DNA of 64,000 bases, from contig JAJZOZ010000001.1 in assembly GCA_021811405.1 (NCBI GenBank), positions 5,103 through 69,102 of the forward strand, in the 5' to 3' direction. A program made the translations under genes and the position numbers. Shown in pieces: positions 12,677 through 31,153 of this stretch (position 1 is the stretch's first letter; each line of letters opens with the position of its first letter). Below the pieces are notes generated by a model. It was not told the DNA's origin. It saw only the letters and a list, made by a program, of their open reading frames with translations, and did not search any database. This DNA comes from a bacterium (GTDB taxonomy: Bacteria > Elusimicrobiota > Elusimicrobia > Elusimicrobiales > UBA9959).

Positions 12677-12679
12677 GCC

Positions 12680-14078: not shown

Positions 14079-14094
14079 TGGCAGGGTTGCTGCG
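14079..14094 (+). promoter_or_regulatory. Candidate sigma-54 (-24/-12) promoter upstream of the 15-haem cytochrome operon
   Basis: TGGCAGGGTTGCTGCG has GG and GC with correct 12-nt register (consensus TGGCAC-N5-TTGCA). It lies 45 nt upstream of ATG 14139, directly after the EBP gene. Confidence 0.6.
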
Positions 14095-14138
14095 CGCTTA
14101 ATTTCGTATAGAATACCTGAATATAATCGGAGAGTGCT

Positions 14139-15452
14139 ATGCGTATCCAGCGTTATATCCCGATCATGCTCCTGCTGTGCGCCGCCGCGCGCGGCCGGGC
14201 GGCCGCGGCGCCGGTTTCACCTGACGTTATAACCACTACGCCCGCCTGCGTGGAGTGCCATAAGAAGGTGGTCTCGTCCAAGTTCACGCACGGTCCGGTC
14301 GGAGTGAAAATGTGCAGGGTGTGCCACTCGGACGAGAAACCGGCACAGGACCCCGCGAAGCATCATGTCTTCTCGTTCCCGAAGCCGCAGCCGGAACTGT
14401 GCCTGGAATGCCACGTGGACGTGCGCGAGAGCCTCAGGTCCGGCAAGATGACGCACGGCGCCATCGAGGCCGGCGGCTGCACTTCCTGCCACGATCCGCA
14501 CGGCTCCGGCCAGAAGTTCTTCCTGCGCGGGGAGAACATGGACGCGCTCTGTTCCAACTGCCACGGGAAAAAGACCGGCGGCGCCGTGGTCCACCGGCCG
14601 GTGAAGGCCTCGTGCATGCTGTGCCACGAGCCGCACGCGTCCGGCGGCAGCCACCTTCTCAAGACCGACACCCCGGAACTCTGCCTGGGCTGCCACCAGC
14701 AGGTGAAGACGGAGCTTTCCGGCAAGTACGTCCACGGCCCGGTGCAGACCGGCTGCCAGACCTGCCATGACCCGCACAGCGCGCCCAAGCCGTACCTGCT
14801 GAAGTCCGACGCGAAGAAGGAGCTCTGCCTGGGCTGCCACGCGGACATGGCCAAGGCGCTGAAGAACGCCAAGCGCCCGCACCCCGCCGTGGAATCGGCC
14901 GGCTGCATCGGCTGCCACAGCCCCCACGCGTCGGGGCAGCCGAAGATGCTGCTGAAGCCGATGAAGGAGCTCTGCCTGGGCTGCCACGCGGACAAGGCCG
15001 CGGAGCTGGGCAGCAAGTTCCTGCACGGCCCGGTGCGCCTGAACGAATGCCAGGGCTGCCATGACCCGCACGGGGCGGACAACCCCAACATCCTCAAGGA
15101 ATATTTCCCGGAGGACTTCTACAACTCGTACAAGGAAGGCCTGTACGCCCTGTGCTTCGAATGCCACGAGAAGAACATCGCCAGCGAACCCAGGACCGCC
15201 AAGCTGACCAACTTCCGCAACGGCGACGTGAACCTGCATTACGTCCACGTCCATTCCGAGAAGGGACGCAGCTGCAAAGCGTGCCACCAGGTGCACGGCG
15301 GCCGCCAGGAGAAGCACGTCCGGGAGAGCGTGCCGTTCGGCTCCTGGCCGCTGCCCATCGTGTACAGGAAGACCGCCACCGGCGGCAGCTGCAACGTCGG
15401 CTGCCATAACCCCAAGTCCTACGACCGCGTGAAAGAGGTGGAGAACAAATGA
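14139..15452 (+). CDS. Multihaem c-type cytochrome, 14 CXXCH plus 1 CXXXCH (437 aa)
   Basis: Signal peptide MRIQRYIPIMLLLCAAARGRAAAAP. Motifs counted in the translation: CVECH, CRVCH, CLECH, CTSCH, CSNCH, CMLCH, CLGCH, CQTCH, CLGCH, CIGCH, CLGCH, CQGCH, CFECH, CKACH and CNVGCH. Confidence 0.9.
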   Translation: MRIQRYIPIMLLLCAAARGRAAAAPVSPDVITTTPACVECHKKVVSSKFTHGPVGVKMCRVCHSDEKPAQDPAKHHVFSFPKPQPELCLECHVDVRESLRSGKMTHGAIEAGGCTSCHDPHGSGQKFFLRGENMDALCSNCHGKKTGGAVVHRPVKASCMLCHEPHASGGSHLLKTDTPELCLGCHQQVKTELSGKYVHGPVQTGCQTCHDPHSAPKPYLLKSDAKKELCLGCHADMAKALKNAKRPHPAVESAGCIGCHSPHASGQPKMLLKPMKELCLGCHADKAAELGSKFLHGPVRLNECQGCHDPHGADNPNILKEYFPEDFYNSYKEGLYALCFECHEKNIASEPRTAKLTNFRNGDVNLHYVHVHSEKGRSCKACHQVHGGRQEKHVRESVPFGSWPLPIVYRKTATGGSCNVGCHNPKSYDRVKEVENK

Positions 15453-16417
15453 GATACATCGTAAGAGCGTTCGTCGTGCTGGCCTTCGGCCTGCCGTTCT
15501 GCGCGGGCGTCTCCCGCTGCGAAGCCAACCCGCTGCGGAACCTGGAACTGGGGGCCGCCGCTTTCCCGTTCTCCCTGCCGGACACGAACGGGAACGCGGT
15601 AAGCCTGGACAAGTTCAAGGGGCGGCCCGTGGTGGTCTGTTACTGGCGTGAAGGCCAGTTCTACTCCAAAAAGATGCTCGAGGTCATGACGCGCGCGCAG
15701 GCCAAGTTCGGCGGCAAGGGCGTGGAGTTCCTCTCCATCACAAGGACCGCGGGCGCCGAAGCCCCAAAGGTGTCCACGATGCCTTTCCCGGTGCTGCTGG
15801 ACGACCAGGAGAAGGTCTACGGGGATTACGGCCTGTTCATACTGCCTACCACGTTCGTGCTGGACGGCGGGCACCGCCTCAAGGCTTATTTTTCCAGCTA
15901 CCAGGAGGAGTCCGGACCGGAGCTGGACAAGATACTGTCGGAGATGCTCGGCCTAAAGGCGACGCCGGCGCCCGCCCCGCGCTACGCGGCGGTGCAGGGC
16001 ATGGCTGACCCGGAGCTCAACCTCGCCCGCGAGCTGCTGAAGGAGGGCAAGGCTGCCGAGGCCCTGCCGCTGCTGGAGAAAGGGCTGCGCGGCGCGGCGT
16101 CAGGCGACGCCGCGGAGCTGAAGCTGCTGTCCGCCCAGGCGCTGATGCAGCTGTCGCGCCTGGAGGAGGCCAAAGCGAGGCTGGAGGGCTGCCTGAAGGA
16201 CGATCCCGCCTCGCACGAGGCGCAGCTGCTGCTGGGCAGGACCCTTTTCCTGATGGGCCGCTACGAGCCCGCGGAAGAGGCCCTCAAAAAGTCCATGGGC
16301 CTGAACCCGCATTCCGAAAAGGCGCATTATTACCTCGGGGAGCTGTATGAGAAGACAGGCCGCAAAGATCTGGCGCTGGCCGAATACCGCGCGGCGCTTG
16401 AGCGTATATACAGGTAG
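15449..16417 (+). CDS. Exported thioredoxin-fold (TlpA/ResA-like) domain lacking the CXXC motif, fused to TPR repeats
   Basis: Signal peptide. The redoxin-like stretch FSLPDTNGNAVSLDKFKGRPVVVCYWREGQFYS stands where WxxWCxxC is expected. The C-terminal half is TPR-like (AEALPLLEKGL.., AHYYLGELYEKTGRKDLALAEYRAALE). ATGA overlap with the upstream gene. Confidence 0.65.
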   Translation: MRYIVRAFVVLAFGLPFCAGVSRCEANPLRNLELGAAAFPFSLPDTNGNAVSLDKFKGRPVVVCYWREGQFYSKKMLEVMTRAQAKFGGKGVEFLSITRTAGAEAPKVSTMPFPVLLDDQEKVYGDYGLFILPTTFVLDGGHRLKAYFSSYQEESGPELDKILSEMLGLKATPAPAPRYAAVQGMADPELNLARELLKEGKAAEALPLLEKGLRGAASGDAAELKLLSAQALMQLSRLEEAKARLEGCLKDDPASHEAQLLLGRTLFLMGRYEPAEEALKKSMGLNPHSEKAHYYLGELYEKTGRKDLALAEYRAALERIYR

Positions 16418-16928
16418 CGCCGCCGCGCTGCTGCTGGCCGGCTGCCTGGCGTCCGTCCGCCTGGCTTCCGTGCACGCGCCCTACGGGCGGCATAATTGCG
16501 AGGCCTGCCACGACGTGGGCGGCACGCTGGCCAGGGGGGTTTCGGCCTCTTCCTATTCGGACCGCGTGAAGGAAGAGGCCGCCGGCGGGGACTATTCCCT
16601 TTCGCCCGGCGAGGAAGTCCCCTCGCTTCTCCGCTACCGGGTGGACAGGCTTTGTTTCCAGTGCCACCGGGAGCTGGACCCGGCCTCTCCGGGCTACGAG
16701 GGGAAATGGCTGCACGGTCCGTTCCAGGCCGGCGTGTGCCTGGCCTGCCATCAACCGCACGAATCCGCGAACCCCCGTCTTCTGGTGGCCTATCCGGTGG
16801 AGAAGCTCTGTTCCATGTGCCATTCCGGGTTCCACGGCAAGGAGGGGGCCTCCCGTTATCCCGGGAAGCCATGCCTGGCCTGCCATTCCCCGCATTCCCA
16901 GGAGAAAGCCGCCAGGACCCCGGACTGA
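16347..16928 (+). CDS. Pentahaem c-type cytochrome, probable lipoprotein
   Basis: Lipobox LLAGC. CXXCH motifs CEACH, CFQCH, CLACH, CSMCH and CLACH. The start is uncertain: ATG 16347 overlaps the upstream gene by 71 nt, and an alternative TTG at 16398 gives MSVYTGSAAALLLAGC. Confidence 0.7.
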   Translation: MRRQAAKIWRWPNTARRLSVYTGSAAALLLAGCLASVRLASVHAPYGRHNCEACHDVGGTLARGVSASSYSDRVKEEAAGGDYSLSPGEEVPSLLRYRVDRLCFQCHRELDPASPGYEGKWLHGPFQAGVCLACHQPHESANPRLLVAYPVEKLCSMCHSGFHGKEGASRYPGKPCLACHSPHSQEKAARTPD

Positions 16929-16933
16929 GGGGG

Positions 16934-17698
16934 TTATTTCAGTTTTTTCAGGCTTTCCCGCACCTGTATGGTGAACGGATGCGCCGGTCCCAGCGCTTTT
17001 TCCGCCAGGGCCAGGGCCGTCTTGTACCGCGCGCGGGCCTCGGCCGGCCTGTCCAGGTCGCGGTAAAGGTCGCCCAGATTGCTCAGCGTGATGGCCATGT
17101 TGGGGTTGCCGTGGCCGAAGCTGCCGCCGCAGAGGTCTACGGCCCTCTTGAAAAGAGCCTCGGCGCGCGCGGGGTCCTTGCGCTGGTGGCAGACCTTCGC
17201 CAGGTTGTTCAGCGTGGCGACCACGTCGGAGATGTCGGCTCCGGGGGTCTTGTCGTAATAGGAGAGGGTGGTCTCGAAGGCTTTCTGGGCCGCCTCCAGC
17301 TTGCCTTCTTTCTGGTAAACGGCTCCCAGATTGTTCAGCGCGGTCATGGCCTGGGCCGAGGTCTCGCCGTAGGATTTCGCCGCCAGGGAGAACACCTCGC
17401 CGGCCAGCGGCTCGGCGGCGGAGAAATCGCCGCGGTCATAGTACAGCTTGGCGAGCAGGCCGACGTTGCCGGCCAGCCGGATGTCTCCGGACCGGAAGAT
17501 CTTCCTGGCCAGTTTCAGCGCTTTCCCGGCCTCCTGCACGGCCATCTCTCCCTGTCCATGCTTCGAATATACCGCGGCTTTATCCATGCTCTCCTGCCAG
17601 GCCGGCAGGTCCTTTTCGCTGTTCACGCAGGCGGAAAGCGCCAGGATGATGATAGCCGGGACTAGAGCGGCGCGGTAGCGGATGTTATAAGAGGGCAT
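16934..17698 (-). CDS. TPR-repeat lipoprotein
   Basis: Signal peptide plus lipobox ALSAC. Repeated TPR_12-like units (LNNLGAVYQKEGKLEAAQKAFE, LNNLAKVCHQRKDPARAEALFKRA, LSNLGDLYRDLDRPAEARARYKTA). Confidence 0.8.
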   Translation of the reverse strand: MPSYNIRYRAALVPAIIILALSACVNSEKDLPAWQESMDKAAVYSKHGQGEMAVQEAGKALKLARKIFRSGDIRLAGNVGLLAKLYYDRGDFSAAEPLAGEVFSLAAKSYGETSAQAMTALNNLGAVYQKEGKLEAAQKAFETTLSYYDKTPGADISDVVATLNNLAKVCHQRKDPARAEALFKRAVDLCGGSFGHGNPNMAITLSNLGDLYRDLDRPAEARARYKTALALAEKALGPAHPFTIQVRESLKKLK

Positions 17699-17816: not shown

Positions 17817-17833
17817 TGGCAGCATTGCTGCCA
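17817..17833. promoter_or_regulatory. Candidate sigma-54 (-24/-12) promoter, perfectly palindromic
   Basis: TGGCAGCATTGCTGCCA reads TGGCAG-N5-CTGC on the + strand and TGGCAG-CAATG-CTGC on the - strand. It lies 20 nt upstream of ATG 17853, and 119 nt upstream of the divergent TPR gene start at 17698. Confidence 0.55.
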
Positions 17834-17852
17834 TGATAATAAATGACGCGTT

Positions 17853-18227
17853 ATGCTGTCTATATTGATCGTGGACGATGAGCCGCTGATAAACTGGTCG
17901 CTGGGCCAGGTCTTCGAAGGCGCCGGCTACGCCGTGACCCTGGCCGAAAGCGGCGAGGAGGCCGAGGCGCTGGCCATGGCCGGCCGTTTCGACGTGGTAT
18001 TGACGGACGTTAAGATGAAAGGCATGACCGGGTTCGAGCTCCTCCGGCGGCTGAAAGCGGGCCTTCCGGGGGTCAAGGTGGTCCTGATGACGGCTTTCTC
18101 CGGAGAGGCGGAAAAGGACGCCTCCTTACGGGAAGGCGCCGACGATTTCATACGCAAGCCTTTCAATGTGGCGGAGGTGGTCCAGCGGGTGCGGGCGCTG
18201 CTCGCAGGGGCGGAGTGCGCGTTTTAA
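17853..18227 (+). CDS. Single-domain response regulator (CheY-like receiver)
   Basis: ILIVDDE. Phospho-acceptor context DVVLTDVKMKGMTG. The motifs LMTAF and KPF. Confidence 0.85.
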   Translation: MLSILIVDDEPLINWSLGQVFEGAGYAVTLAESGEEAEALAMAGRFDVVLTDVKMKGMTGFELLRRLKAGLPGVKVVLMTAFSGEAEKDASLREGADDFIRKPFNVAEVVQRVRALLAGAECAF

Positions 18228-18248
18228 CGCGATTTGCGTCAAATCGCG
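18228..18248. repeat. Perfect inverted repeat CGCGATTT-GCGTC-AAATCGCG immediately after the receiver gene stop
   Basis: 8-bp arms with a 5-nt loop starting 1 nt after the TAA stop. The following sequence, CATTGTTTG, is only weakly T-rich. It could be an attenuating hairpin or an operator. Confidence 0.4.
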
Positions 18249-18307
18249 CATTGTTTGCTATGATATTACGGAAATTCCGTGCATCTGTGATCTGGAGCCG
18301 ACCTTCC

Positions 18308-19297
18308 ATGCGCCATAGTATCAGAAAGAACCCGTGCGGCCCCCGCCGCCTGCTCCGCGCCGCTGCTGTCCTCTGCCCGCTGCTCTGTCTTGCCGCCCTT
18401 TCCTGGGCCGGGAAGAAGGACAACGCGCCCGACCCTTTTTACGCCAGGCACACGGCCGAGGCCGGAAAGTTCGCCGGTAAGGGGCACGTCCATACTCCGG
18501 TGGCGAAGAACGTCTGCAGCCCGTGCCACGCGTCGGCGGAAGACCCGAAGAAGCTCTCCGCCGAGGGCAATGAGCTGTGCTTCTCCTGCCACTCCGCGCT
18601 GAAGAAGGACCTTAAGAAGAAGAAGGTCCACGAGCCCTTCTCCGGCATGCCCTGCTCCACCTGCCACGACCCGCATTCCTCCGGAGAGGCCGCCAACCTC
18701 GTTTCCCCGGTCAGGGAGCTCTGCTCCATGTGCCATGACGTCTCAGCTACCGGTACGGCGGCCGCGCACGGCGGCGTCAGGACGATGAAGAAGGACTGCA
18801 CGCTGTGCCATTCCCCGCACGCCTCCGACAACGGCAAGCTGCTGCTGGAGGGAAAAACGCATCCCTCTTTCGAAGCCGGCTCCTGCGGTACCTGCCACGC
18901 CGAGCCGGGCCCGGACGGCGAGGCGAAGCTTTCCGGTTCCGCGGGCAGCGCGTGCCTTATGTGCCACGGGGACCTGCAGGACGCCATGAAGGAGAAGTCG
19001 GCGCACCGGCCTTTCCTGTCCGGCGCCTGCGAGAAATGCCATTTTCCCCATGTAGGCAAGTTCCGGGCCTTCACGCTCTCGGAGCCAGAGCTGATGTGCC
19101 GCTCCTGCCACGCGGGCATCCAGGATAACGGCCACCCGGTGGTCGGACACCTTTCCCACGATCCCGGCAAAAAGAATCCCCTGGACAAGTCACGGCCGTT
19201 CGACTGCGTTTCCTGCCACAAGCCGCACGCTTCCGCTTTCGGAAAGCTGCTGGTGAAAGAGCCGGGGGAACTGTGCCTGGCCTGCCATGAGCAGTGA
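18308..19297 (+). CDS. Multihaem c-type cytochrome, 11 CXXCH (329 aa)
   Basis: Start taken at ATG 18308 (MRHSIRKNP..LLCLAALSWAG signal). Motifs: CSPCH, CFSCH, CSTCH, CSMCH, CTLCH, CGTCH, CLMCH, CEKCH, CRSCH, CVSCH and CLACH. Confidence 0.85.
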   Translation: MRHSIRKNPCGPRRLLRAAAVLCPLLCLAALSWAGKKDNAPDPFYARHTAEAGKFAGKGHVHTPVAKNVCSPCHASAEDPKKLSAEGNELCFSCHSALKKDLKKKKVHEPFSGMPCSTCHDPHSSGEAANLVSPVRELCSMCHDVSATGTAAAHGGVRTMKKDCTLCHSPHASDNGKLLLEGKTHPSFEAGSCGTCHAEPGPDGEAKLSGSAGSACLMCHGDLQDAMKEKSAHRPFLSGACEKCHFPHVGKFRAFTLSEPELMCRSCHAGIQDNGHPVVGHLSHDPGKKNPLDKSRPFDCVSCHKPHASAFGKLLVKEPGELCLACHEQ

Positions 19298-19381
19298 GGA
19301 ACTCCGGGGGGCGGGGAAAAGGCGCGAGCAATAGAGCGCTGATTTGCGGGTACAGCGGGGCTTATCCTTAAAGGAGTTTTT

Positions 19382-20428
19382 ATGCGGTCCATCGTGCTGT
19401 CTTTGGCGGTTATGGGCGGTCTCTTCGCGGTGTACGGGACGCCGGCGGCGGCCGCCGCCGAAGCGAAAGAAATAGTCTTCCCGGCTCCGCCCGACGTGCC
19501 GCGCATAAAATATCTCAGAAGCCTCGCGCGGGAATCCGATATTTCCGGCCGGAAATCCGGCATGTGGGGCAAGTTCCTCAACGCCATCACCGGCAAGGAG
19601 GCGTCCAACATCTTCATGACCAGGCCGTACGACGTCTGCGCCGACACCGGCAGCGTCTACGTCTCGGACAGCGAGGGCGGGGCCGTGGTGGCGTTCAACC
19701 TGCAGAGCGGGAAAGCCTACAAGATCGGCGGCACGCTGGAGGGGAGGCTGGTCTCCCCGATGGGAGTGGCGCTGGATTCCTCGGGCAGGCTTTTCGTGGC
19801 GGATTCGGCCGGGGACACGATAAAGGTCTTTTCAGTGAACGGAGATTTTCTTTTTCGCTTCGGCCTTTCCGGCTCCGGGCCCGGGCAGTTGAAAAAGCCG
19901 CTGGACGTGACCTATGACCGCGGGCGCGACAGGATACTGGTGGCGGACAGCGGCAACGCGCGGATACAGATTTTCGACACCGCCGGAAAGTTCATAGCCC
20001 AGATAGGGAGCCGCGGGACCGCCGACGGCCAGTTCTCCATTCCGGTCGGGGTGGCCGTGGCCCCGGACGGGCGGGTGATCGTCTCTGATACCATGCTCTG
20101 CCGGGTGCAGGAATTCTCACCTGACGGGAAGTTCCTCCTGAAGTTCGGCGAGCAGGGGGACAGCCTGGGCTACTTCGCCCGGCCCAAGGGAGTGGCCACG
20201 GACAGCGACGGGAACATCTACGTGGCGGACGCGCTTTTCAGCGCGATACAGATCTTCGATCCGAAGGGCGAGCTGCTGATGCATTTCGGGGCCGAGGGCG
20301 GCGAGCCCGGCGCTTTCCAGCTGCCCATCGGCGTCTACGTGGACGACCAGGACAAGGTCTATATCGCCGATTCTTTCAACCAGCGCGTCCAGGTCTTCCA
20401 GTACCTGAAGCAGCCTAAAGCGCCTTAG
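19382..20428 (+). CDS. Exported NHL-repeat six-bladed beta-propeller protein (paralog 1 of 4)
   Basis: RBS AAAGGAG and a signal peptide. Repeated NHL-type units (P.GVA.D..G.I.V.D..N.R.Q.F). Conserved N-terminal VFPAPPDVPRIKYL and C-terminal QRVQVFQYLK. Confidence 0.85.
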   Translation: MRSIVLSLAVMGGLFAVYGTPAAAAAEAKEIVFPAPPDVPRIKYLRSLARESDISGRKSGMWGKFLNAITGKEASNIFMTRPYDVCADTGSVYVSDSEGGAVVAFNLQSGKAYKIGGTLEGRLVSPMGVALDSSGRLFVADSAGDTIKVFSVNGDFLFRFGLSGSGPGQLKKPLDVTYDRGRDRILVADSGNARIQIFDTAGKFIAQIGSRGTADGQFSIPVGVAVAPDGRVIVSDTMLCRVQEFSPDGKFLLKFGEQGDSLGYFARPKGVATDSDGNIYVADALFSAIQIFDPKGELLMHFGAEGGEPGAFQLPIGVYVDDQDKVYIADSFNQRVQVFQYLKQPKAP

Positions 20429-20478: not shown

Positions 20479-20508
20479 TTGACAACGGCGCGGCCGCGGG
20501 GGTATACT
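20479..20508 (+). promoter_or_regulatory. Sigma-70-type promoter
   Basis: TTGACA-N18-TATACT, about 30 nt upstream of GTG 20539. Confidence 0.55.
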
Positions 20509-20538
20509 TCGCTAAGAACGCGCCGTACCGGAGGAGCG

Positions 20539-21102
20539 GTGAAAACCAAGGTCATACTTCTTTTCATGTCGGTGACGCTGCTGCTGGCTTATTTCGCGCA
20601 TAGACGCGGGAAGCCGGTGACGGTCCCTTCCGACCTGCGCGATTCCGTGATAACCGTTCATGGCTCTTCCGGGGTTCCCGGTTTGGCGCCGCAGTGCCTG
20701 TCCGGCGGCCTTCCGCACAGGGCCGCGGCCGCCGCCGCCTGGGACGGCGGCGGAGCGCTCGCCGCCGGCGTTCAGTCTTCCCCGATGGCGCAGGGAGTAT
20801 ATTCCTGCCTGTCCTGCCATGACGGCACGGTGGCGCCGGCGGATAAGTCGTATTCGGCCGCGCTCGGCTTTTCCGGCGGCGCGCCGGAGGGCGGCTCCGC
20901 CGGAAATCACCCGGTGGGCGTGGATTACGGGGAGGCCATGCGCGCCCGCCCAGGCGAGTACAATGACCCGCATTCCAACCCGGATATCAGGCTTTCCGGG
21001 AACAAGGTCACGTGTCTTTCCTGCCATGCCAGCGAACTGACGGCCGGCCTGCAAATGCCCGGCGGCCAGACCGCTCTTTGTCTCTCCTGTCACAGGCTTT
21101 GA
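20539..21102 (+). CDS. Small c-type cytochrome, 3 CXXCH, divergent member of the tetrahaem family with a degenerate first haem site
   Basis: GTG start preceded by GGAGGAG. TM/signal segment VILLFMSVTLLLAYFA. The motif CLSCH occurs three times, and GNHPVGVDY is present. The position of the first motif reads CLSGGLPH. Confidence 0.7.
   Translation: MKTKVILLFMSVTLLLAYFAHRRGKPVTVPSDLRDSVITVHGSSGVPGLAPQCLSGGLPHRAAAAAAWDGGGALAAGVQSSPMAQGVYSCLSCHDGTVAPADKSYSAALGFSGGAPEGGSAGNHPVGVDYGEAMRARPGEYNDPHSNPDIRLSGNKVTCLSCHASELTAGLQMPGGQTALCLSCHRL
20994..21102 (+). repeat. Direct repeat copy A (3' end of the trihaem cytochrome gene)
   Basis: About 90% identical by eye to 28422-28530, with a perfect 59-nt core (21016-21074 = 28444-28502). 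Confidence 0.9.
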
Positions 21103-21450
21103 GCGCGCTTACCGCCTGCTCCGGCTTTTTGCCGGACCGGCCGGAAGATCGCGTGCCTTTTACCGGGCGTTCACTGATCGATGGATACGCTGAGGGCTTG
21201 TTTTCTGGCGTCCGCTTCATTGCCTGTTCCGCGGATCGCGGAGTCCGCCCGCGGCGGACGCCGCCCCTTGCCCGCATACCGCGTGTATGCCCGCTCATCG
21301 CGGCTTGTTCCCGGACAGCGCCGCTGAGCGCCACCCACAGCCGTCTCCGGCCTATGGCCGTGCCAGGAGCTATGCCCGTCGAACAGCCAAATCCGGGCCG
21401 CCATAAGTCATATTGCTTATGCGCGGGCCGGTTAATGAGGAAATACTGTT

Positions 21451-22512: not shown

Positions 22513-22625
22513 GGCTTGCGGCAGAAAACCGTTTGTGCGGGATTTCCCCCGGTCTGCGTGAAATCACCCGGATTTGCGGCGGCCGGAACAGCGGTTTCCA
22601 TTGGGAAAGGCGCGTTGCGGGGTGT

Positions 22626-22641
22626 TGGCAGAAACGCTGCA
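22626..22641 (+). promoter_or_regulatory. Candidate sigma-54 (-24/-12) promoter
   Basis: TGGCAGAAACGCTGCA has correct GG/GC register. It lies 88 nt upstream of ATG 22730. The palindrome CTTGACATGTCAAG (22661-22674) lies in the presumed 5' UTR. Confidence 0.65.
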
Positions 22642-22729
22642 CTAAGGATATATGGCGGGGCTTGACATGTCAAGTGCCGCGGCCGCGGCGGGGAAAATGC
22701 GCGGGGGACAGAGGAAACGGGGAGGCGTT

Positions 22730-23365
22730 ATGAAGAAACATGAATCCGTGTGGGCGGGCATGCTTATAGCGTGTGCCCTTGTTCTGCCGGCGCGGCCGGC
22801 GCGCGCAGTGGTTGCGGGTTCCCTGCACGACTTCACCGCGGCCCCGTATTCGCTGCTCACCACCTGTTCGGGCTGCCACGTGCCGCACCAGACCAAGACG
22901 AATGTCCCGTTATGGGCGCACGCGACATCCACGTATACCTACACATTGTATAACCAGAACGCGGCGTATGTCGTGAAAAGCCCCGCCTTCACTTACGATG
23001 CGTCCCCGAGCGCCCTCACGGGCAGCAAATCGCTGTTATGCCTGGGCTGCCATGACGGTACGGTGGCGGTATCCGGCACGAACTATATCACGCAGGCCTC
23101 GGCCTCCTGGATACTTTATGACGCCGGAGCGAAGGTGGGCGGCCAGGCGAGCGCCAATCCGTCGGCCGGCCTGAAAGGCAGCCATCCTATCGGTGTCGTC
23201 TACCAGGCGGTGGCGGGGAAATATAATGATATCTCGCTCGACCCCGATGTGAAGCTGGACAGCACCAAGGTCCAATGCACTTCGTGCCACAACCCGCACA
23301 ACCTGTTCCCCAAGATGCTGGTGAAATCAGGCGCCGCGCTCTGCACCACCTGCCATATAAAGTAA
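22730..23365 (+). CDS. Tetrahaem c-type cytochrome (211 aa), cassette A
   Basis: Start at ATG 22730 (RBS GGGGAGG, signal MKKHESVWAGMLIACALVLPARPARA). Motifs CSGCHVPH, CLGCHDG, CTSCHNPH and CTTCHIK, plus NVPLWAH and GSHPIGVVY. Confidence 0.85.
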   Translation: MKKHESVWAGMLIACALVLPARPARAVVAGSLHDFTAAPYSLLTTCSGCHVPHQTKTNVPLWAHATSTYTYTLYNQNAAYVVKSPAFTYDASPSALTGSKSLLCLGCHDGTVAVSGTNYITQASASWILYDAGAKVGGQASANPSAGLKGSHPIGVVYQAVAGKYNDISLDPDVKLDSTKVQCTSCHNPHNLFPKMLVKSGAALCTTCHIK

Positions 23366-23437
23366 CGCGCGGCAGGAACGGCCCGCCGGGGTTTTTAAGC
23401 ACGGGGGCCGCTGTTTCCGGGAATCCAGGATGATAAA

Positions 23438-24490
23438 ATGCGCTGGAAAACGGCCGGCATCAGTCTGAAAACGCTGAAGTTTCCAGCCATGCTGCTGGCT
23501 ATAGCGTTCACGGCAGCCGCCGCGGCGTCCGTTGGCGGGCGTGTCTGGCCCCCGGCCCCGGATAAGGCGCGGATCCGGCTGATAGCCGTGCTTCCCGAAG
23601 CGGCGCAGGAGGACAATGCCGGGCCGCTTTTTCTGAAAATTTTACGCCGCCTGGCCGGCCTGAAGCCGGGCAAGCGCCGCGGTCCGGGGTTTGTGCGCCC
23701 CACAGGCGTGGCCGTGCGCGGCCGCGTCGTCTATGCCGCAGACCCGGGAGCCGGAGGCGTTGTCATCTATGACACCGAAAAACGTTCCTGCAGCCTGATT
23801 CCGGCCAACCGCCGCAACCGCCTGCCTTCTCCGGTAGGAGTGGCGGCGGCTTCCGACGGGAGCATATTCGTCAGCGATTCCCGGCTGCGGAAAGTTCTTC
23901 TGTTCGACGCCGGAGGCCGCGCCAGCGGCGAACTTAAACCCCCGCCGGGCGCTTTCATGCGGCCGGGTGGTCTGGCTCTGGACGAGGCCCGCGGCCGGCT
24001 GTGGGTGGCCGACGCTGCGGCGCATATGATCTACGCCTATTCTCTCGGCGGAGAATACCTGTTTTCCATCGGCGCGCGGGGCCAGGCGCCCGGCAGTTTC
24101 AATTATCCCACCTATCTCTGGGCCGATACGCGCACAGGAGCCCTGTGGGTCTGCGACTCCGGCAACTTCCGCGTCCAGTCCCTTGACGCCGCCGGGCGGC
24201 CGACAGGGGCTCTGGGGCGCAACGGCAACTGCCCCGGTTATCTGGCGCGGCCGCGCGGCGTGGCCGCAGATTCCGAAGGCCACGTCTATGTGGCGGACGG
24301 CGCGATGTCCGCCGTGCAGATATTTGACGAGAGCGGGCGGTTATTGCTGTATTTCGGAGAGCGGGGCGGCCAACCGGGCGAGTTCTATCTGCCGGGGGGG
24401 GTGTTCATTGACGGCGACGACAGGATATATGTCGCCGATACCTATAACGCCAGGGTGCAGGTATTCCAGTACCTGAAGGACGCGCCATGA
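23438..24490 (+). CDS. Exported NHL-repeat beta-propeller protein (paralog 3 of 4), cassette A
   Basis: Signal peptide. VWPPAPDKARIRLI. NHL units. C-terminal ARVQVFQYLKDAP. ATGA overlap with the next gene. Confidence 0.85.
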   Translation: MRWKTAGISLKTLKFPAMLLAIAFTAAAAASVGGRVWPPAPDKARIRLIAVLPEAAQEDNAGPLFLKILRRLAGLKPGKRRGPGFVRPTGVAVRGRVVYAADPGAGGVVIYDTEKRSCSLIPANRRNRLPSPVGVAAASDGSIFVSDSRLRKVLLFDAGGRASGELKPPPGAFMRPGGLALDEARGRLWVADAAAHMIYAYSLGGEYLFSIGARGQAPGSFNYPTYLWADTRTGALWVCDSGNFRVQSLDAAGRPTGALGRNGNCPGYLARPRGVAADSEGHVYVADGAMSAVQIFDESGRLLLYFGERGGQPGEFYLPGGVFIDGDDRIYVADTYNARVQVFQYLKDAP

Positions 24491-26367
24491 AGAAAATGTC
24501 CGCCGCTGCCGCCTCCGCCGCGCCGGCCGCCATTTCGCTGCTTCTGGCCGGCGCGCTGTTCCCGCCTCCGGCGCGCGCGCTTGTCGTCGCCGGTTCTAAA
24601 CACGATCTCTCTCCCGGTTCGGGCACGTCCCAGACCTGCATATTCTGCCACACGGCCCACCAGGCCAAGCGGAACGTCCCGCTGTGGAATCATTACGTGA
24701 CCACCCAGACCTTCACCTTCTACTCCTCCAACCATCTCAACACCTACCTCGCCATCGCCGCCCCGACCATGGCCGACCTCCCCGGAACTCGCACGGAGCT
24801 GTGCCTGTCCTGCCATGACGGGATGACGGCCCTCGGAGGCCTCTACAATCTGGGCGGGGAAACCATTTCAAAACCCCCGGCCGTTACGGGCCCCGCCAAC
24901 CTGGGCACTAACCTCGCCGACGACCACCCGGTGCTTTACGACGTCAAGCCCGGCGCGGGTCCGCCCGGCTCGCCCGGCACCGACCCCGAGATACAACTGC
25001 CGCTTGCCGGCGACGCGGTCAAGGTCTACGGCGCCGCCAACAGGGTGGAGTGCACTTCCTGCCATGACCCGCATGATAACCAGTTCGGCCATTTCCTGGT
25101 CAAATCCAACGCCAACGCGGCCATCTGCACGACATGTCACATAAAATCCGGCTTTTCCGCCTCCGCGCACGCGACTTCCGTCGTGGCCTATACTCCGCCA
25201 GGCGAAGCGGCGACCACCGTCGGCGAGTGGTCATGCCGGAACTGCCACCGTTCCCACGGGGCGTCCGCGACGCAGGCCTACATCCTGCGCGGAGCCGAGG
25301 AGGCCACCTGCTACCAGTGCCACGGCAATCCTCCCCTGGCCGGCGCCAGGAATATGCAGGCGCTCTTTCTCAAAGCCTCCAGACACCCGACGGAAACGGT
25401 CTCGGCCAGGCATAAGGACCCGGAGACGGACGGCTCCAATTTCACGTATTCGCCGCTCAACAACAGGCATGCGGAATGCCAGGACTGCCATAATCCGCAC
25501 CAGGCCAAGACCGGCACCCATACCGCGCCCGCCAATAACATCTCGAACGTACTGCTGGGCCAGTGGGGCGTGGAACCCTCTGACGGCGCGATCTGGACCG
25601 CGGCCATCGCCTATGTCCGCCAGGTCTTCGCTAACACGACAGGCTACAAGGAGTACCAACTCTGTCTCAAGTGCCACTCCTACTACGCCTTCGGCGCCAT
25701 ACCCGCTCCCAATATCACGGACCAGACCGTCGAGTTCAATATCAATAACAAGGCCGCTCATCCTGTCCGCGCGGGTCTCAGCGGCCAGACCGGGAGCGTT
25801 GCTCCGAAGGCTTTGACGGCCGGCCAGATGTCGGCGCCGTGGACGACCGCCGGCACCCAGACGATGTACTGCTCGGACTGCCACGATTCTGACGTCGCTG
25901 CCGATCCCAAGGGTCCGCATGGCTCGGCCGGAACGTGGCTCAAGAAAGGCCCCAACGTCTACTGGCCCAGGGACGCCGCTCTGGCGCTGTATACGCTGGG
26001 CGCCAACAACACTACCGACGCGCATCTGGCGGGACTTTTCTGCCGCAACTGCCATCCTTTGAGAAGCGCGACAGCAAATACCTGGTACAACAACGCCCAC
26101 CAGGAGCACAGTGGGGCGCAGGTAAGCAATGTCCCCTGCGTGGCCTGCCATGTGGTGGTCCCGCACGGCTCGCGCCGCGGGCGGCTCATCGGCTACGCGG
26201 CTGAAAGCGCCCCCTACAACAACAACGGCGCGGGAACCCTTGAAAAACTCGTGCTGAGCGGCTTTAAGAAAGCGACGACCCCCGTAGGATACGTCACGGG
26301 AAACTGTTACTCCACCGTCGCGGGATGCAGTTCGGTGCATACGAACGCGGGTGGCTATGATCCCTGA
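24487..26367 (+). CDS. 11-haem c-type cytochrome (626 aa), cassette A
   Basis: Signal peptide. 11 CXXCH motifs: CIFCH, CLSCH, CTSCH, CTTCH, CRNCH, CYQCH, CQDCH, CLKCH, CSDCH, CRNCH and CVACH. The first ~215 aa are homologous to the small tetrahaem proteins. Confidence 0.9.
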   Translation: MKKMSAAAASAAPAAISLLLAGALFPPPARALVVAGSKHDLSPGSGTSQTCIFCHTAHQAKRNVPLWNHYVTTQTFTFYSSNHLNTYLAIAAPTMADLPGTRTELCLSCHDGMTALGGLYNLGGETISKPPAVTGPANLGTNLADDHPVLYDVKPGAGPPGSPGTDPEIQLPLAGDAVKVYGAANRVECTSCHDPHDNQFGHFLVKSNANAAICTTCHIKSGFSASAHATSVVAYTPPGEAATTVGEWSCRNCHRSHGASATQAYILRGAEEATCYQCHGNPPLAGARNMQALFLKASRHPTETVSARHKDPETDGSNFTYSPLNNRHAECQDCHNPHQAKTGTHTAPANNISNVLLGQWGVEPSDGAIWTAAIAYVRQVFANTTGYKEYQLCLKCHSYYAFGAIPAPNITDQTVEFNINNKAAHPVRAGLSGQTGSVAPKALTAGQMSAPWTTAGTQTMYCSDCHDSDVAADPKGPHGSAGTWLKKGPNVYWPRDAALALYTLGANNTTDAHLAGLFCRNCHPLRSATANTWYNNAHQEHSGAQVSNVPCVACHVVVPHGSRRGRLIGYAAESAPYNNNGAGTLEKLVLSGFKKATTPVGYVTGNCYSTVAGCSSVHTNAGGYDP

Positions 26368-26434
26368 ATCCCGCCGTTGCGCCGGGAGAAGGTGATGCCG
26401 GCCGGAATGGTTCCCGGGTTGGGAGGGCGAACTC

Positions 26435-28108
26435 ATGCGCCGCCATACCAGCTGTCTGCTCTGCGTTTTCTGGCTGCTGAAGGCGGCCGTACCCGCAGCG
26501 CGAGCGCAATCCCCGTACGCAGCGTCCGGCCGGCTCGGCTGGTCCTATGACGACGTCATGGTCCGGACCCCGGAGGGAAGCAGGCGCATCGCGATAGCCG
26601 GCCAGAAGTACAATCTGAACCTCCGGGGACCGTTCGGCCTGCCGGGGATCGGCGAAGGCTTCGCCACGCTCGACTATTCTGAAGGGAGGAACCTCTCGCA
26701 GGTCGTCGCAGGCGGGGGCGCCGCCCAGAAGCTGGTCGGGTATTCTATCGGCGGCAGCTTCCTCCCGCCGGAGGCGCGCGAATTCGTGTCGCTTGGCGGG
26801 ACGTTCGCGCGGAATTCCGACCGCACGGCCTGGGGCGCGGGTCCGCCCAGGAATCTCACGGACACGAGCTATGACGGCAATATCGGCCTGACGCTGCCCG
26901 GGCTGCCGAGCCTGCAGCTGAGCTGTCAGAACCTTCAGCGCCGCGACAGCGCCGAAGGCGCGCCGGCCAGCCAGGATATCATAACGTGGCGGGAGCGCGC
27001 GTCGTACGCCAAGGGCCCTCTGCGCTGGAATTACTTCCGCACCCGGCAGGATACAAGAGCCCTCGGTCCGGGAGTCCGGAGTTCCGGCAACGACGACCTT
27101 TCCACCGACCTGTCCCTGGACTATCCCGCTCTGCGCGTGCGCGGCCTGCGAAGCCTGGCCCTGCGCGCCTCGTTTACCCGCCAGGCGTTCGACAGCGCCG
27201 GGAACCGGAGGACGCAGCAGTCTATCGGCGAGAGCGGCTATCTCACCACGGCGCTTTCGCGCAGCGGACGGTTCGAGTCATATCTCGGCTACGGCGAGAG
27301 CTTTTCCCGCATCGCCGGGGAAAAAAGCCTGCGCTCCAGCCATAACCTGAGCCTGGTCAGCCAGTCGGTTTCGTCGCGCTGGAATGTGAACAACCAGGCC
27401 AAGTACTCCGCGGCCTCCGGCCCCGGCGTAAGCGGCCAGAGTCTCGACGAGAATTTCAACGCGGAGTCGCCGAGGTTCGGCAAATACTTCGTCTACTATC
27501 TGCAGAGCGCCGGCAGCGTCCGCTGGGGGGGATCCGGCGGAGGGACGGCCGGAGAATCGGCGTTGCAAAAACTCTCCTTCTATCCCCGCCCGGAACTGGA
27601 TGTCTACTGCCAGCAGAGCTACTCGGGTTCGGGCGCCAGGCTTGGCCGGGCGCGCGAGGACAGCCTCGGCTGGGCCGCGGGCGTCAATTGGCGGCCCGGC
27701 AGCCTTCTGGAAACCGCCGCCGACTACAGTCGGCAACGCGGCCGCGGTCTTCTTACTGACCAGCTGACGTTAAGTTATAAAGCCTTTCCGCTGGACAGTA
27801 TGACCATAGGATGCGGTTATTCCCTGCAGCGTACCCGGACTTACCGGCCGCTGCCGATGGAATCCGTGTACGGCACATTCAAAGCCGACCTTGGATATCG
27901 CCCGGCCGAGGGCCTCTCGCTGGACGCCAGCCTCCTGCGGCAACGGTTTGCCGGGGAGAATCCGGGCCGGCCAGGCGCCATGGATTATTCCCTGTCGGCG
28001 CTATACCAGCTGGGCGCAGTCGAAATGAGCGTTAAATACGAAAACCGCGCGATTTCAACGGTCAACGAATACAGCCGTCTGGCAGCGGAGTTCAGCCGGA
28101 ATTTTTAG
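26435..28108 (+). CDS. Large outer-membrane beta-barrel protein (557 aa), cassette A; putative porin partner of the cytochromes
   Basis: RBS GGGAGGG. Signal peptide ending AARAQ. Ser/Gly/Tyr/Arg-rich alternating beta-strand pattern throughout. C-terminal AAEFSRNF (terminal Phe). Paralog of 38586-40289. Confidence 0.7.
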   Translation: MRRHTSCLLCVFWLLKAAVPAARAQSPYAASGRLGWSYDDVMVRTPEGSRRIAIAGQKYNLNLRGPFGLPGIGEGFATLDYSEGRNLSQVVAGGGAAQKLVGYSIGGSFLPPEAREFVSLGGTFARNSDRTAWGAGPPRNLTDTSYDGNIGLTLPGLPSLQLSCQNLQRRDSAEGAPASQDIITWRERASYAKGPLRWNYFRTRQDTRALGPGVRSSGNDDLSTDLSLDYPALRVRGLRSLALRASFTRQAFDSAGNRRTQQSIGESGYLTTALSRSGRFESYLGYGESFSRIAGEKSLRSSHNLSLVSQSVSSRWNVNNQAKYSAASGPGVSGQSLDENFNAESPRFGKYFVYYLQSAGSVRWGGSGGGTAGESALQKLSFYPRPELDVYCQQSYSGSGARLGRAREDSLGWAAGVNWRPGSLLETAADYSRQRGRGLLTDQLTLSYKAFPLDSMTIGCGYSLQRTRTYRPLPMESVYGTFKADLGYRPAEGLSLDASLLRQRFAGENPGRPGAMDYSLSALYQLGAVEMSVKYENRAISTVNEYSRLAAEFSRNF

Positions 28109-28421: not shown

Positions 28422-28530
28422 TTCCGGCGACAAGGTGACCTGCCTTTCCTGCCATGCCAGCGAACTGACGGCCGGCCTGCAAATGCCCGGCGGCCAGACC
28501 GCCCTCTGCCTCGCCTGCCACAGGCTGTGA
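28422..28530 (+). pseudogene. Orphan 3' fragment of a cytochrome gene (direct repeat copy B)
   Basis: Encodes ..GDKVTCLSCHASELTAGLQMPGGQTALCLACHRL*, nearly identical to the C-terminus of the 20539-21102 product. The frame is closed by TGA at 28327. There is no signal peptide and no ATG or RBS. An AT-rich patch lies upstream. Confidence 0.75.
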
Positions 28531-28563
28531 GCTCGCCCCGCCGCCGGCCGCCCCTCCGGGCGG

Positions 28564-29841
28564 TCAGCGCTCCCCGCCCCGGTCCAGCCCGAACAAGGTC
28601 CTGACAGCGCTTATCTTCGCCAGCGTCTCCTCGTCCGTACCGTTCCCGCCGTTCTTGAGGCCGGTGATGGGAGCGTGCAGGATCCTGCCGAGGACCCGCC
28701 TGGTGACCACGTCCAGCAGCTCGCGGTCCCGCTCCCCGAAGCGGCCGGCGTGCTTCTCCACCTCGCTGCGGCGGATCTCCTCGAAGAGCTCCGTCAGCTC
28801 CCTGATCGTGGGACCGGCGGCGAGGGAGAGGTGCCAGCGGGTGAACGCGGCGAGCTCCTCCTCTACGATAGTCCTCACCTTGGCGGCTTCGCGCGTCCGC
28901 TTGTCCAGGTTCTGGTCCACGATGCGCTGGAGGGCGTCGATATCGTGAAGGAAAACGTTGCCGACCTCGTCCGCGAGCGGGTCGATATTGCGGGGGACCC
29001 CGATGTCGATAAGGAAGAGCGGGCCGCGGTCGCGCTCGCGTTCCCCCATGGCCCGGCGTACGTCCTCCGCCCTGAGAACGTAGTCCGGCGCGGAGACCGA
29101 GCTGATGACGATGTCGGCCCGGCGCAGGTGGGTGTGAAGGGCGTCGAAGTCCACCGCCGTGCCCCCCAGCTTCCCCGCGACCTCCTCCGCCTTGCCGCGC
29201 GTGCGGTTGGTTATCAGCAGGTCCCGGACGCCCCTGCCGGCGAGGTGCCTGCCGGTCAGTTCGCCCGTTTCCCCGGCCCCTATGAGAAGGACGCGTTTCT
29301 GGTCCAGGCGCTCGAAGATCTTAGCGGCCAGCTCGGCGGCGGCGAAGCTGACGGAGACGGCGCCCTCGCCTATCCCGGTCTCAGCGCGGCTGCGCTTCCC
29401 GACGTGGAACGCCGTCTGGAAGAGCCGGTTCAGGAGCAGCCCGCTGGTGGAAAGCTCCGCGGCGAGGGAGAAGGCGTCCTTCACCTGCCCCAGGATCTGC
29501 ACGTCGCCCAGGACCATGGAGTCCAGGCCGGAGGCCAGCTCGAAGAGATGCTTCGCCGCCTCGCCGGAGCGGAGGGCGTAGAAATGCCCCGGGCGGGCCG
29601 CCTGCCGCGCCCCCTTGAAGTCCACCAGGAAATCCCGCAGCCGCTCCGGCCGCGGCTCGCCGGACGGGGAGACGGCGTAGGCCTCGGTCCTGTTGCAGGT
29701 GGAGACCAGGACGCATTCGCTGAACGCGCCGCTGCGCAGCGCGGGCAGCGCCTCCCGGAGCTCCTCGCGCGAGAAGCAGAGCTTCTCGCGGACGTCTACG
29801 GGAGCGGTCCTGTGGTTGAGTCCGACGCAGAGAAGGTCCAT
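28564..29841 (-). CDS. hemA: Glutamyl-tRNA reductase
   Basis: MDLLCVGLNHRTAPVDVREK. The motifs STCNRTE and GAGETGEL (NADPH site). Length 425 aa. Confidence 0.9.
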   Translation of the reverse strand: MDLLCVGLNHRTAPVDVREKLCFSREELREALPALRSGAFSECVLVSTCNRTEAYAVSPSGEPRPERLRDFLVDFKGARQAARPGHFYALRSGEAAKHLFELASGLDSMVLGDVQILGQVKDAFSLAAELSTSGLLLNRLFQTAFHVGKRSRAETGIGEGAVSVSFAAAELAAKIFERLDQKRVLLIGAGETGELTGRHLAGRGVRDLLITNRTRGKAEEVAGKLGGTAVDFDALHTHLRRADIVISSVSAPDYVLRAEDVRRAMGERERDRGPLFLIDIGVPRNIDPLADEVGNVFLHDIDALQRIVDQNLDKRTREAAKVRTIVEEELAAFTRWHLSLAAGPTIRELTELFEEIRRSEVEKHAGRFGERDRELLDVVTRRVLGRILHAPITGLKNGGNGTDEETLAKISAVRTLFGLDRGGER

Positions 29842-29862
29842 GGTTTGGCCGGAGGAACGCGC

Positions 29863-30687
29863 TCAGCTGAAATTGTGGAAGCCGCGGAAAAAGAGATTTA
29901 TGACGGTCATGGAGAGCAGGGCCAGGGCGAACCCCAGGATGGACAGGACGGCGAACTTCTTGCCGTACCAGCCCGCCGCCTCCCTCAGCCCGAGGCCGGC
30001 GCCGTACACCAGCCAGATGAGCGCGGTGCCGATGAGCTTCGGGTCCACGTAGGAATGCCCCGGGAACGCCCTGGCCAGCCACGCCATGCCGACCGCTATC
30101 GCCACGGTCAGGAAGAAAAAGCCCGTCGCCGTCGAGATGAAGCTCAGCCTTTCGAGTACCTCCAGGCTGGGCAGGCGCTCGTAGACGACGCCGAGCCGGC
30201 TGGACTTTATCTCGTGATAGAGCATCAGGTAGAGGAAGCCGTAGACGGCCGCGATCGCGAGCGCCGCGTAGCCGAGCAGCGCGCCGGAAACGTGTATCCC
30301 GAGAAGCCGGCTCTTCAGGACTGGATCCACGTCGGTCCTGTTCACGATCAGCAGCGAGGAGGCGAGCTGGAAGAGCAGCGGGAGACCGAGGATGAAACAG
30401 CCGGTGCCCTTCACCTTGGTCCAGTACTCCAGCAGGAAGTACGCGAGCGAAATGCTGAAGGCGATGACCGAGAGTATCTCCGGAAGGCTGGTGATGGGCG
30501 GGTGTCCCAGAAAGACCGTCCGGGCGAGCAGATAAGTGAGATGGACGGAAAGCGCGGCGATAAGCAGCGGCGTCTTGGCGGTCTTCGCGACGGGGCTCGC
30601 GCTGAAGAACGCCCTGGCGTACGCCGCTACTGTTGCCAGGTAAAGGAGCGGCAGCAGAGCGTTCAACGCGGTTATTGCATGGTTCAT
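29863..30687 (-). CDS. Cytochrome c assembly (CcsA/HemX-like) integral membrane protein
   Basis: About 8 predicted TM segments immediately upstream of hemA, as in hemA-hemX arrangements. The start at ATG 30687 is supported by the promoter at 30731-30759, so the track start at 30759 is rejected. Confidence 0.6.
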   Translation of the reverse strand: MNHAITALNALLPLLYLATVAAYARAFFSASPVAKTAKTPLLIAALSVHLTYLLARTVFLGHPPITSLPEILSVIAFSISLAYFLLEYWTKVKGTGCFILGLPLLFQLASSLLIVNRTDVDPVLKSRLLGIHVSGALLGYAALAIAAVYGFLYLMLYHEIKSSRLGVVYERLPSLEVLERLSFISTATGFFFLTVAIAVGMAWLARAFPGHSYVDPKLIGTALIWLVYGAGLGLREAAGWYGKKFAVLSILGFALALLSMTVINLFFRGFHNFS

Positions 30688-30730
30688 TGCCGTGTGCCGT
30701 AACGAAAAAACATACTGACCGGCCGGTTCA

Positions 30731-30759
30731 AGTTTATGTAAATCGTGTGTCGAAGTCAA
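30731..30759 (-). promoter_or_regulatory. Sigma-70-type promoter for the ccsA-like/hemA operon
   Basis: On the minus strand, TTGACT (30759-30754), N17, TAAACT (30736-30731). Confidence 0.55.
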
Positions 30760-31137
30760 GGGATAGGCCTGCCCCTGGATACGGGACCGGATGGGGGCTG
30801 CGCCGCGCGGCAGGGCGCTGTATCGGGAAGGACGGGGGGTCTTGGTCCTGGCGTCTCTGCCGGGAAATTTCCGCCTCCCTGCTATGGTATTTTCTGGAGA
30901 GTGTTTACATATTATAACGGGAAAGCCTCTTTATTAATGATTTATCTATATTATATATCAATGAAGGGGGTTGCGGGAAGCCAATTGTCATAATTTGGTC
31001 AAAAAACGCAGGGGTGGGGGTTTTCCCCCATGGGCAGAGCCCCCGGTTTTCATCAAAGCGCGGCATTCAGCTGGAAATAGGCTTGATGGACTTCAGATCT
31101 GCCGTTTCCCTATGAGAAATGCCGTCTTTGGCGGCTA

Positions 31138-31153
31138 TGGCAGGAATGCTGCA
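31138..31153 (+). promoter_or_regulatory. Candidate sigma-54 (-24/-12) promoter for cassette B
   Basis: TGGCAGGAATGCTGCA has correct register. It lies 79 nt upstream of ATG 31233. It overlaps the inverted repeat CTGCAC-N8-GTGCAG (31149-31168). An AT-rich tract at about 30900-30990 lies upstream. Confidence 0.65.

Follow-up and report, generated by a model that had tools for sequence, protein, structure and literature searches.

What controls a 17-kb cluster of multihaem cytochrome genes in a genome of the phylum Elusimicrobiota, and could the cluster encode the factors that read its own promoters? The question is raised by a stretch of 64,000 nucleotides of contig JAJZOZ010000001.1 (GenBank assembly GCA_021811405.1), hereafter called the window and numbered from its first letter, for which a first reading made from the sequence alone (the sequence-only reading) had proposed that four -24/-12 promoters with the identical core TGGCAG-N4-GCTGC define a local sigma-54 regulon. 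All four sites, which we call sites 1 to 4 or, as putative promoters, P1 to P4 (cf. Table 1), were found in the window with exactly the coordinates and sequences claimed for them, and the identical core was present at exactly these four plus-strand places. The regulon interpretation was supported by the spacing of the motif, by its intergenic position and orientation, by the confinement of the sites to one 17-kb cluster of the 64-kb window, by an operon of regulatory genes whose end lies 19 nt ahead of site 1, and by the retention of the motif at three of three comparable positions in a related contig (L001). We consider it probable that the four sites are enhancer-dependent -24/-12 promoters of a local cytochrome regulon.

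The motif itself is the first line of evidence. The pattern TGGCAG-N4-GCTGC matched the window five times (site 2 being counted on both strands) versus 0.07 matches expected, and none of 100 shuffles reached five. The GG-N10-GC register that had been described for the sites was correct at all four of them, within a TGGCA...TGC core. The canonical sigma-54 consensus is mrNrYTGGCACG-N4-TTGCWNNw, and that of Geobacter sulfurreducens TTGGCACGGTTTTTGCT (PMC2725144); the atypical bases pointed out earlier are a consistent deviation from it, since all four sites have a G at -21 instead of C or T, a G at -16, and a C instead of T at -15. About 90% of the window is coding, and all four sites lie in the non-coding 10% or so, each of them co-oriented with the next gene. 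They had also been placed 20-90 nt upstream of the first gene of a cytochrome transcription unit, which was right for the distances at all four sites but wrong for the first gene at site 2, where a stand-alone receiver gene precedes that of the 11-haem cytochrome. When the 64 kb were scanned with a position weight matrix built from 11 TGGCAG-type sites, the four sites and the reverse of site 2 scored 19-24 bits and no other comparable site was found, the next best score being 13.9 bits, which is inside the shuffle range. Relaxing the pattern to TGGCA-N7-TGC added only four matches in the window, approximately a chance number, and these lay inside or antisense to coding sequence. No Rfam RNA family matched at the sites. 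At sites 1 and 2 the motif stands only 20-44 nt from the start codon, too close for it to be an upstream activator site serving some other promoter. Separately, the 11-haem genes of units 3 and 4 were each noticed to contain, in antisense orientation, an identical TGGCATTCCGCATGC (25467-25481 and 34063-34077), which most likely reflects paralogy rather than a promoter.

The second line of evidence is conservation. A word-indexed search of 5.8 billion clustered proteins revealed one close relative of the sigma-54-like protein of the window, P0002, with 62% identity, and its contig, L001, is syntenic with the window. In alignments of the two loci, the motif formed an island of identity within spacers that have diverged in both length and sequence. 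Degenerate-pattern scans of genome and metagenome contigs with the sigma-54-like protein as query yielded no further syntenic locus, and an exact 24-nt pattern taken from site 2 had no match in metagenomes. The comparison bears on the idea that the core has no regulatory role and that the sites share it through duplication or by chance. Transcription units 3 and 4 are indeed paralogous (their tetrahaem proteins are 55% identical), so that sites 3 and 4 could be copies. However, sites 1 and 2 precede genes that are unrelated to each other, the flanks of the sites fail to align even between site 3 and site 4, the number of matches expected by chance is the 0.07 given above, and in L001 the motif was conserved whereas the surrounding intergenic DNA was not; we give this idea practically no credence. 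Conservation has its bounds among the cytochromes themselves. The closest homologues of the tetrahaem proteins in GTDB genomes were encoded in Elusimicrobiaceae metagenome-assembled genomes (MAGs; L007, L008 and L009; 62-64% identity), where the -24/-12 motif was absent upstream of the homologues (L007 700-1070; L008 8330-8700; L009 9630-10000) and a divergent LysR-type gene was present instead. Since these three loci are without the motif, the -24/-12 promoter is not universal to the tetrahaem cytochrome family and, judging from these upstream regions, the OmcE-like cytochrome family is wired to differing regulators.

Site 2 deserves separate consideration, as it is part of a perfect 17-bp palindrome that matches the motif on each strand and sits, in both the window and L001, between divergent genes, with the TPR gene to its left and the receiver gene to its right. 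The palindrome is kept in L001, where TGGCAGCAATGCTGCCA is the reverse complement of the window palindrome, its centre base being flipped, and the 12 bases after it contain one difference between the two genomes. Motif positions 7, 16 and 17 vary freely elsewhere, and at site 2 both genomes fit the reverse-strand reading exactly. The site may hence be readable in both directions, with the divergent TPR gene as a possible leftward target, while a minus-strand sigma-70-like TAGACA-18-TATCAT (17862-17833) is an alternative source of leftward transcription.

Symmetry of this kind is also the starting point for a different explanation, in which the motif would be the operator of a dimeric transcription factor acting on GCAG-N5-CTGC and the genes would be read from sigma-70 promoters. 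All four sites have the inverted repeat GCAG...CTGC, the palindrome of site 2 occurs in both genomes, and minus-strand sigma-70-like boxes lie beside sites 1-3; on the plus strand, however, such boxes were found at none of the four sites. Furthermore, the canonical sigma-54 consensus already contains GCA-N7-TGC, site 1 of L001 breaks the repeat (GTTGC) yet retains GG-N10-GC, and the cluster encodes a sigma-54-type activator and no candidate dimeric regulator. Moreover, the invariant 5' TGG is left without a matching 3' CCA at window sites 1, 3 and 4 and at sites 1 and 3 of L001; because it is not mirrored at the three window sites, the signal is asymmetric, as expected of a promoter. We therefore regard an operator as a very improbable account of the four sites.

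If the sites are -24/-12 promoters, the next question is which sigma factor would read them. The sigma-54-like gene and the NtrC-type activator gene that the sequence-only reading had placed next to the sites were confirmed by their Pfam domains and lie directly upstream of site 1. A histidine kinase gene stands between them, and since the gaps are only 1 nt (sigma-54-like/kinase) and 3 nt (kinase/activator), the three genes form one operon. Among the candidate start codons of the sigma-54-like gene (10012, 10057 and 10117), 10057 was favoured because a conserved peptide, AIWHN, is encoded upstream of 10117. The window protein matched Pfam PF04552 (Sigma54_DBD) with 33 bits (cut-off 22.8), and the domain was hit in 60 of 60 family members. 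An exhaustive HMMER search placed 621 clusters in the family at E <= 0.001, and 295 of them also passed E <= 1e-10. The listed hits were mostly 340-390 aa long and matched end to end. With hhalign, family columns 174-370 aligned to residues 270-475 of E. coli sigma-54 (probability 98.5%), and a profile search of PDB sequences retrieved E. coli sigma-54 (~314-474) and Aquifex sigma-54 (over ~200 residues). The RpoN box of the window protein reads SRRSVNDYR; the RR and YR of this box, as well as the SR of the helix-turn-helix (HTH) recognition helix, show little or no variation across the family. An AlphaFold model of the whole protein had a pLDDT of 88, and its top 27 Foldseek hits in the PDB were all sigma-54. 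By sequence, only the C-terminal ~200 residues (ELH-HTH-RpoN) are detectably sigma-54, and the protein is without two of the three domains that define membership of that family. No published description of a short sigma-54-like family was found in the literature searched; the family would escape surveys in which a sigma-54 must have all three Pfam domains at strict thresholds (PMC12316311). One member, encoded at L002 10001-11077 on a 423-kb soil-metagenome scaffold, has secG on one side, rpoD-dnaG-rpsU on the other and no activator in its vicinity, a context that suggests a broader role of the short proteins in some lineages.

Three family-level associations connect the short protein with its putative activators and promoters. 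First, the family gene lies beside, and often overlaps, a gene for an enhancer-binding protein in 8 of 12 informative loci (the window, L001, L004, L006, L018, L019, L023 and L024), and the L018 locus continues into ResB-CcsA-cytochrome genes. The activator of the window (PF00158, 220 bits; Response_reg, 86 bits; HTH_8, 57 bits) has a sigma-contacting GAFTGA-type loop that reads GAFTDA, and the G at position 5 of GAFTGA was missing from all nine partner activators (five GAFTDA, two GAYTDA, one GAFTNA and one GAFTDS). Among the activators of Desulfovibrio vulgaris, 25 of 37 have the exact GAFTGA and 2 of 37 a D at position 5 (PMC4641369), and the significance of the GAFTDA loop of Dickeya VfmH was described as unknown (PMC10714721). 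Second, all 11 promoter-like intergenic sites near closer family members (four in the window, three in L001, two in L018, of which one is CGGCAG, and two in L019) read TGGCAG, whereas among tabulated, validated sigma-54 promoters only 3.6% of the TGGCAN matches have this hexamer (PMC12316311). The G at -21 is not an effect of base composition, since it is also present in L019, a locus of 41% GC. Third, the TGGCAG-associated proteins carry the RpoN box SRRS, and the more distant loci L004 and L023 combine canonical TGGCA[TC]-N5-TTGC sites with the canonical-type RpoN box ARRT; in the 84 family members scored, SRRS occurred 43 times, SRRT 21 times and ARRT 7 times. The RpoN box is the element of sigma-54 that reads the -24 region, so that covariation of SRRS or ARRT with the base at -21 is what a dedicated sigma factor predicts. 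The activator loop, TGGCAG and RpoN box associations together suggest a dedicated module of sigma-54-like protein, activator and promoter.

Sites resembling -24/-12 elements were also seen upstream of the sigma-54-like operon itself in L019 (9906-9920, 95 nt upstream of the sigma-54-like gene), L023 (7966-7980) and L018 (8311-8325), and suggest positive autoregulation of the operon in these three loci. An autoregulatory site before the sigma-54-like gene of the window was considered and rejected: the TGGCAG/TGGCAT strings at 10083-10110 are mis-spaced and lie in conserved coding sequence.

Alternatively, a canonical RpoN encoded elsewhere could read the four sites as ordinary sigma-54 promoters, in which case the local protein would be no sigma factor but perhaps a competitor, repressor or co-factor that acts on -24/-12 elements through its RpoN/HTH domain. 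This explanation accords with the GG-N10-GC spacing and TGGCA...TGC core of the sites, with the fully canonical TGGCA[CT]-N5-TTGC sites at distant family loci, and with the N-terminal half of the local protein, for which a profile search against PDB sequences gave no significant match to region I or the core-binding domain (CBD). A number of further results weigh against the four sites as promoters of a local regulon or against the local protein as their sigma factor: (i) no match to Pfam Sigma54_AID (PF00309) or Sigma54_CBD (PF04963) was found in any of 60 family members, even at E <= 1; (ii) with hhalign, the N-terminal part gave as its best local match a co-linear but non-significant one (E = 0.2), IExDPLF versus LESNPLLE, where region I of the E. 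coli protein ends (residues 36-51); (iii) Foldseek hits of an AlphaFold model of the N-terminal 172 aa were non-significant as well, the sigma-54 CBD structure 2k9l being ranked ninth with E = 2.1; (iv) activators with a GAFTDA loop can work with canonical sigma-54, since the GAFTDA of D. vulgaris DVU2106 is among the loops recorded as permitting activation (PMC4641369); (v) the covariation between RpoN box and -21 base is based on only five independent lineages; (vi) a shared upstream activator site was not found by inverted-repeat and k-mer enrichment in seven upstream regions, where nothing clearly exceeded the shuffles; (vii) the predicted leader at site 2 is only ~10 nt long and has no Shine-Dalgarno sequence; and (viii) sites 3 and 4 are not independent, because they lie upstream of paralogous operons. 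Given results (i) to (iii), binding of core RNA polymerase and responsiveness to an activator are putative properties of the short protein.

Yet a canonical RpoN would not by itself account for the rarity of TGGCAG in validated promoters set against its presence at every site beside the closer family members, or for a -21 base that tracks the RpoN box of the local protein. In addition, the full-length model aligned solely to sigma-54 chains in Foldseek, some of the alignments exceeding 420 columns, with a TM of only ~0.4, so that a structural equivalent of the core-binding domain may be present, and sigma-54 and its activators were reported to be absent from Elusimicrobium minutum, the one Elusimicrobia genome surveyed (PMC3162934). 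On balance, an RpoN encoded elsewhere together with a non-sigma local protein appears unlikely to us. As to the complexes at P1-P4, the local short sigma-54-like protein is the likeliest partner of RNA polymerase, at about even odds, and their formation with canonical RpoN we consider rather doubtful.

The locus resembles canonical sigma-54/NtrC systems in the spacing and core of its sites, in their placement upstream of the operon to be driven, and in the adjacent two-component kinase and receiver-AAA+-HTH_8 activator; it differs in its GAFTDA loop and in that neither region I nor a core-binding domain is detectable in the only sigma-54 relative in the window. Another parallel is offered by the RpoN1 and RpoN2 proteins of Rhodobacter sphaeroides, which have separate promoter specificities and whose promoters are reported to differ at -11 (cited in PMC3162934). 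There, too, a dedicated sigma-54 is paired with particular activators, and a single promoter base could carry the specificity. However, the Rhodobacter proteins are full-length and have three Pfam domains, whereas those described here have ~360-386 aa and only a recognisable C-terminal part, and the discriminating base would be at -21, in the -24 element, where it covaries with SRRS versus ARRT.

From the features computed here, i.e., motif, position, conservation, domain content and family-level associations, we infer the following sequence of events. The operon at 10057-14059 would supply the sigma-54-like protein, a histidine kinase with a haem motif and an NtrC-type AAA+ activator. The CXXCH motif of the kinase reads CYRCH and lies ahead of the HAMP domain, which suggests that a haem c, bound covalently, serves as cofactor for sensing; the kinase would sense a periplasmic, plausibly redox, signal and phosphorylate the activator. 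A hexamer of the latter, using ATP, would then remodel and open closed complexes of holoenzyme waiting at P1-P4, so that four multihaem operons would be switched on, namely the 14-haem unit, the unit of receiver and 11-haem genes, and two OmcE-like tetrahaem/NHL/11-haem units, of which that of P4 also carries cytochrome-maturation genes. The palindromic site 2 may, in addition, fire to the left into the divergent TPR gene. Going one step further, we tentatively propose as a possibility that the locus is a self-contained orthogonal enhancer-dependent module, in which short SRRS-type sigma-54-like factors, GAFTDA/GAYTDA activators and the TGGCAG element would privately control an acquired OmcE-like extracellular-electron-transfer island.

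The genes of the cluster are set out in Table 1. The proteins of the window are deposited as MDA8244835-860 (Elusimicrobiota MAG), and for this reason a Geobacter origin was rejected. The tetrahaem cytochromes encoded in units 3 and 4, each with four CXXCH motifs, matched PDB entry 7tfs_A over their full length (E = 8.5e-17, profile positions 11-216). The N-terminal ~220 residues of the 11-haem proteins encoded at 24487-26367 and 33074-34981 matched the same chain (E = 5e-30; residues 12-223 of the protein at 33074) and are followed by an extension of ~400 aa. The PDB record is itself titled 'Cytochrome c', and we take it to be the OmcE filament of G. sulfurreducens; on sequence grounds, then, the tetrahaem products are OmcE-like. 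The likeness to OmcE covers the whole tetrahaem sequence and the N-termini of the 11-haem proteins, a filament here being putative, and the differences are the phylum, the neighbouring genes for NHL-repeat and 557/567-aa proteins, and the predicted -24/-12 control. The 557-aa protein (26435-28108) had no Pfam or NCBIfam match, and its 567-aa paralogue (38586-40289) had none in a Pfam scan, the only one applied to it; that the two are outer-membrane barrels is a guess. Third-position GC is 0.73-0.79 in the genes at 20479-28108 and mostly 0.85-0.94 in the regulator operon and housekeeping genes, and the cytochrome island may, to judge from this composition, have been acquired. The trihaem gene and the hemA operon had been credited with sigma-70-type boxes, which were confirmed at the level of consensus matches: TTGACA-18-TATACT (11 of 12 positions) before the former and TTGACT-17-TAAACT before ccsA-hemA.

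Two further observations concern single genes. A B12-binding radical-SAM protein is encoded at 37082-38593, between CcsA and the 567-aa protein, an unusual context for such an enzyme; its best match was BchE with 385 bits, under the cut-off of 481 bits. The remainder of the window is housekeeping in character (guaA, guaB, dnaB, alr and mla genes), and there the gene at 48857-50314 encodes a fusion of an aminoglycoside-phosphotransferase-like kinase domain with the C-terminal domain of RapZ; no rpoN is nearby. In Proteobacteria, rapZ is part of the rpoN operon.

Table 1. Coordinates of the putative promoters, genes and other features of the locus. Positions refer to the window, except for the three sites of contig L001.
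Feature	Position	Strand	Sequence	Remarks
P1, putative promoter (-24/-12)	14079-14094	+	TGGCAGGGTTGCTGCG	19 nt past activator stop; 44 nt from motif end to ATG 14139
P2, putative promoter	17817-17832	+	TGGCAGCATTGCTGCC	20 nt from motif end to ATG 17853
P2 palindrome	17817-17833	both	TGGCAGCATTGCTGCCA	perfect 17 bp; motif matched on each strand
P3, putative promoter	22626-22641	+	TGGCAGAAACGCTGCA	88 nt from motif end to ATG 22730
P4, putative promoter	31138-31153	+	TGGCAGGAATGCTGCA	79 nt from motif end to ATG 31233
L001 site 1	6889		TGGCAGAATTGTTGC	upstream of 14-haem gene
L001 site 2	10576 (palindrome 10576-10592)		TGGCAGCAATGCTGC	upstream of receiver gene
L001 site 3	13318		TGGCAGAAACGCTGC	upstream of tetrahaem gene; 15-mer identical to window P3
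Clostripain-like peptidase	ends 9894			
Short sigma-54-like protein	10057..11217	+		Pfam Sigma54_DBD only, 33 bits
Histidine kinase (HAMP-HisKA-HATPase)	11219..12676	+		one CXXCH motif in N-terminal sensor part
NtrC-type activator	12680..14059	+		receiver, AAA+ sigma-54 interaction domain, HTH_8
Transcription unit 1	14139..16928	+		14-haem cytochrome, AhpC/TSA-TPR protein, 5-haem cytochrome
Terminator-like hairpin	16916-16935			end of transcription unit 1
TPR protein gene	16934..17698	-		divergent from receiver gene
Transcription unit 2	17853..20428	+		stand-alone receiver domain, 11-haem cytochrome, NHL-repeat protein
Sigma-70-like boxes	20479..20508	+	TTGACA-18-TATACT	ahead of trihaem gene; outside -24/-12 set
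Trihaem cytochrome, NHL protein	20539-22512			
Transcription unit 3	22730..28108	+		OmcE-like tetrahaem cytochrome, NHL protein, 11-haem cytochrome (OmcE-like N-terminus), 557-aa protein
hemA and ccsA-like gene	28564-30690	-		
Transcription unit 4	31233..40289	+		OmcE-like tetrahaem cytochrome, NHL protein, 11-haem cytochrome, ResB, CcsA, BchE-like B12 radical-SAM protein, 567-aa paralogue of 557-aa protein

What do these findings mean? Enhancer-dependent transcription is regarded as the domain of a single, highly conserved sigma factor with three domains. The promoters alone are of a known type, and what is new is the association of TGGCAG, GAFTDA and SRRS with a sigma-54-like family for which no description was found. 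Should the short proteins prove to be sigma factors, they would constitute a second lineage of the sigma-54 type with its own activator loop and promoter base, i.e., a natural orthogonal switch of relevance to both the mechanism of transcription and synthetic biology. If not, they would be the first case of DNA-binding proteins that reuse the promoter-reading module of sigma-54. Either way, the locus offers a concrete and testable point of entry into the regulation of OmcE-like "nanowire" cytochrome clusters beyond the Geobacter group, in uncultivated Elusimicrobiota.

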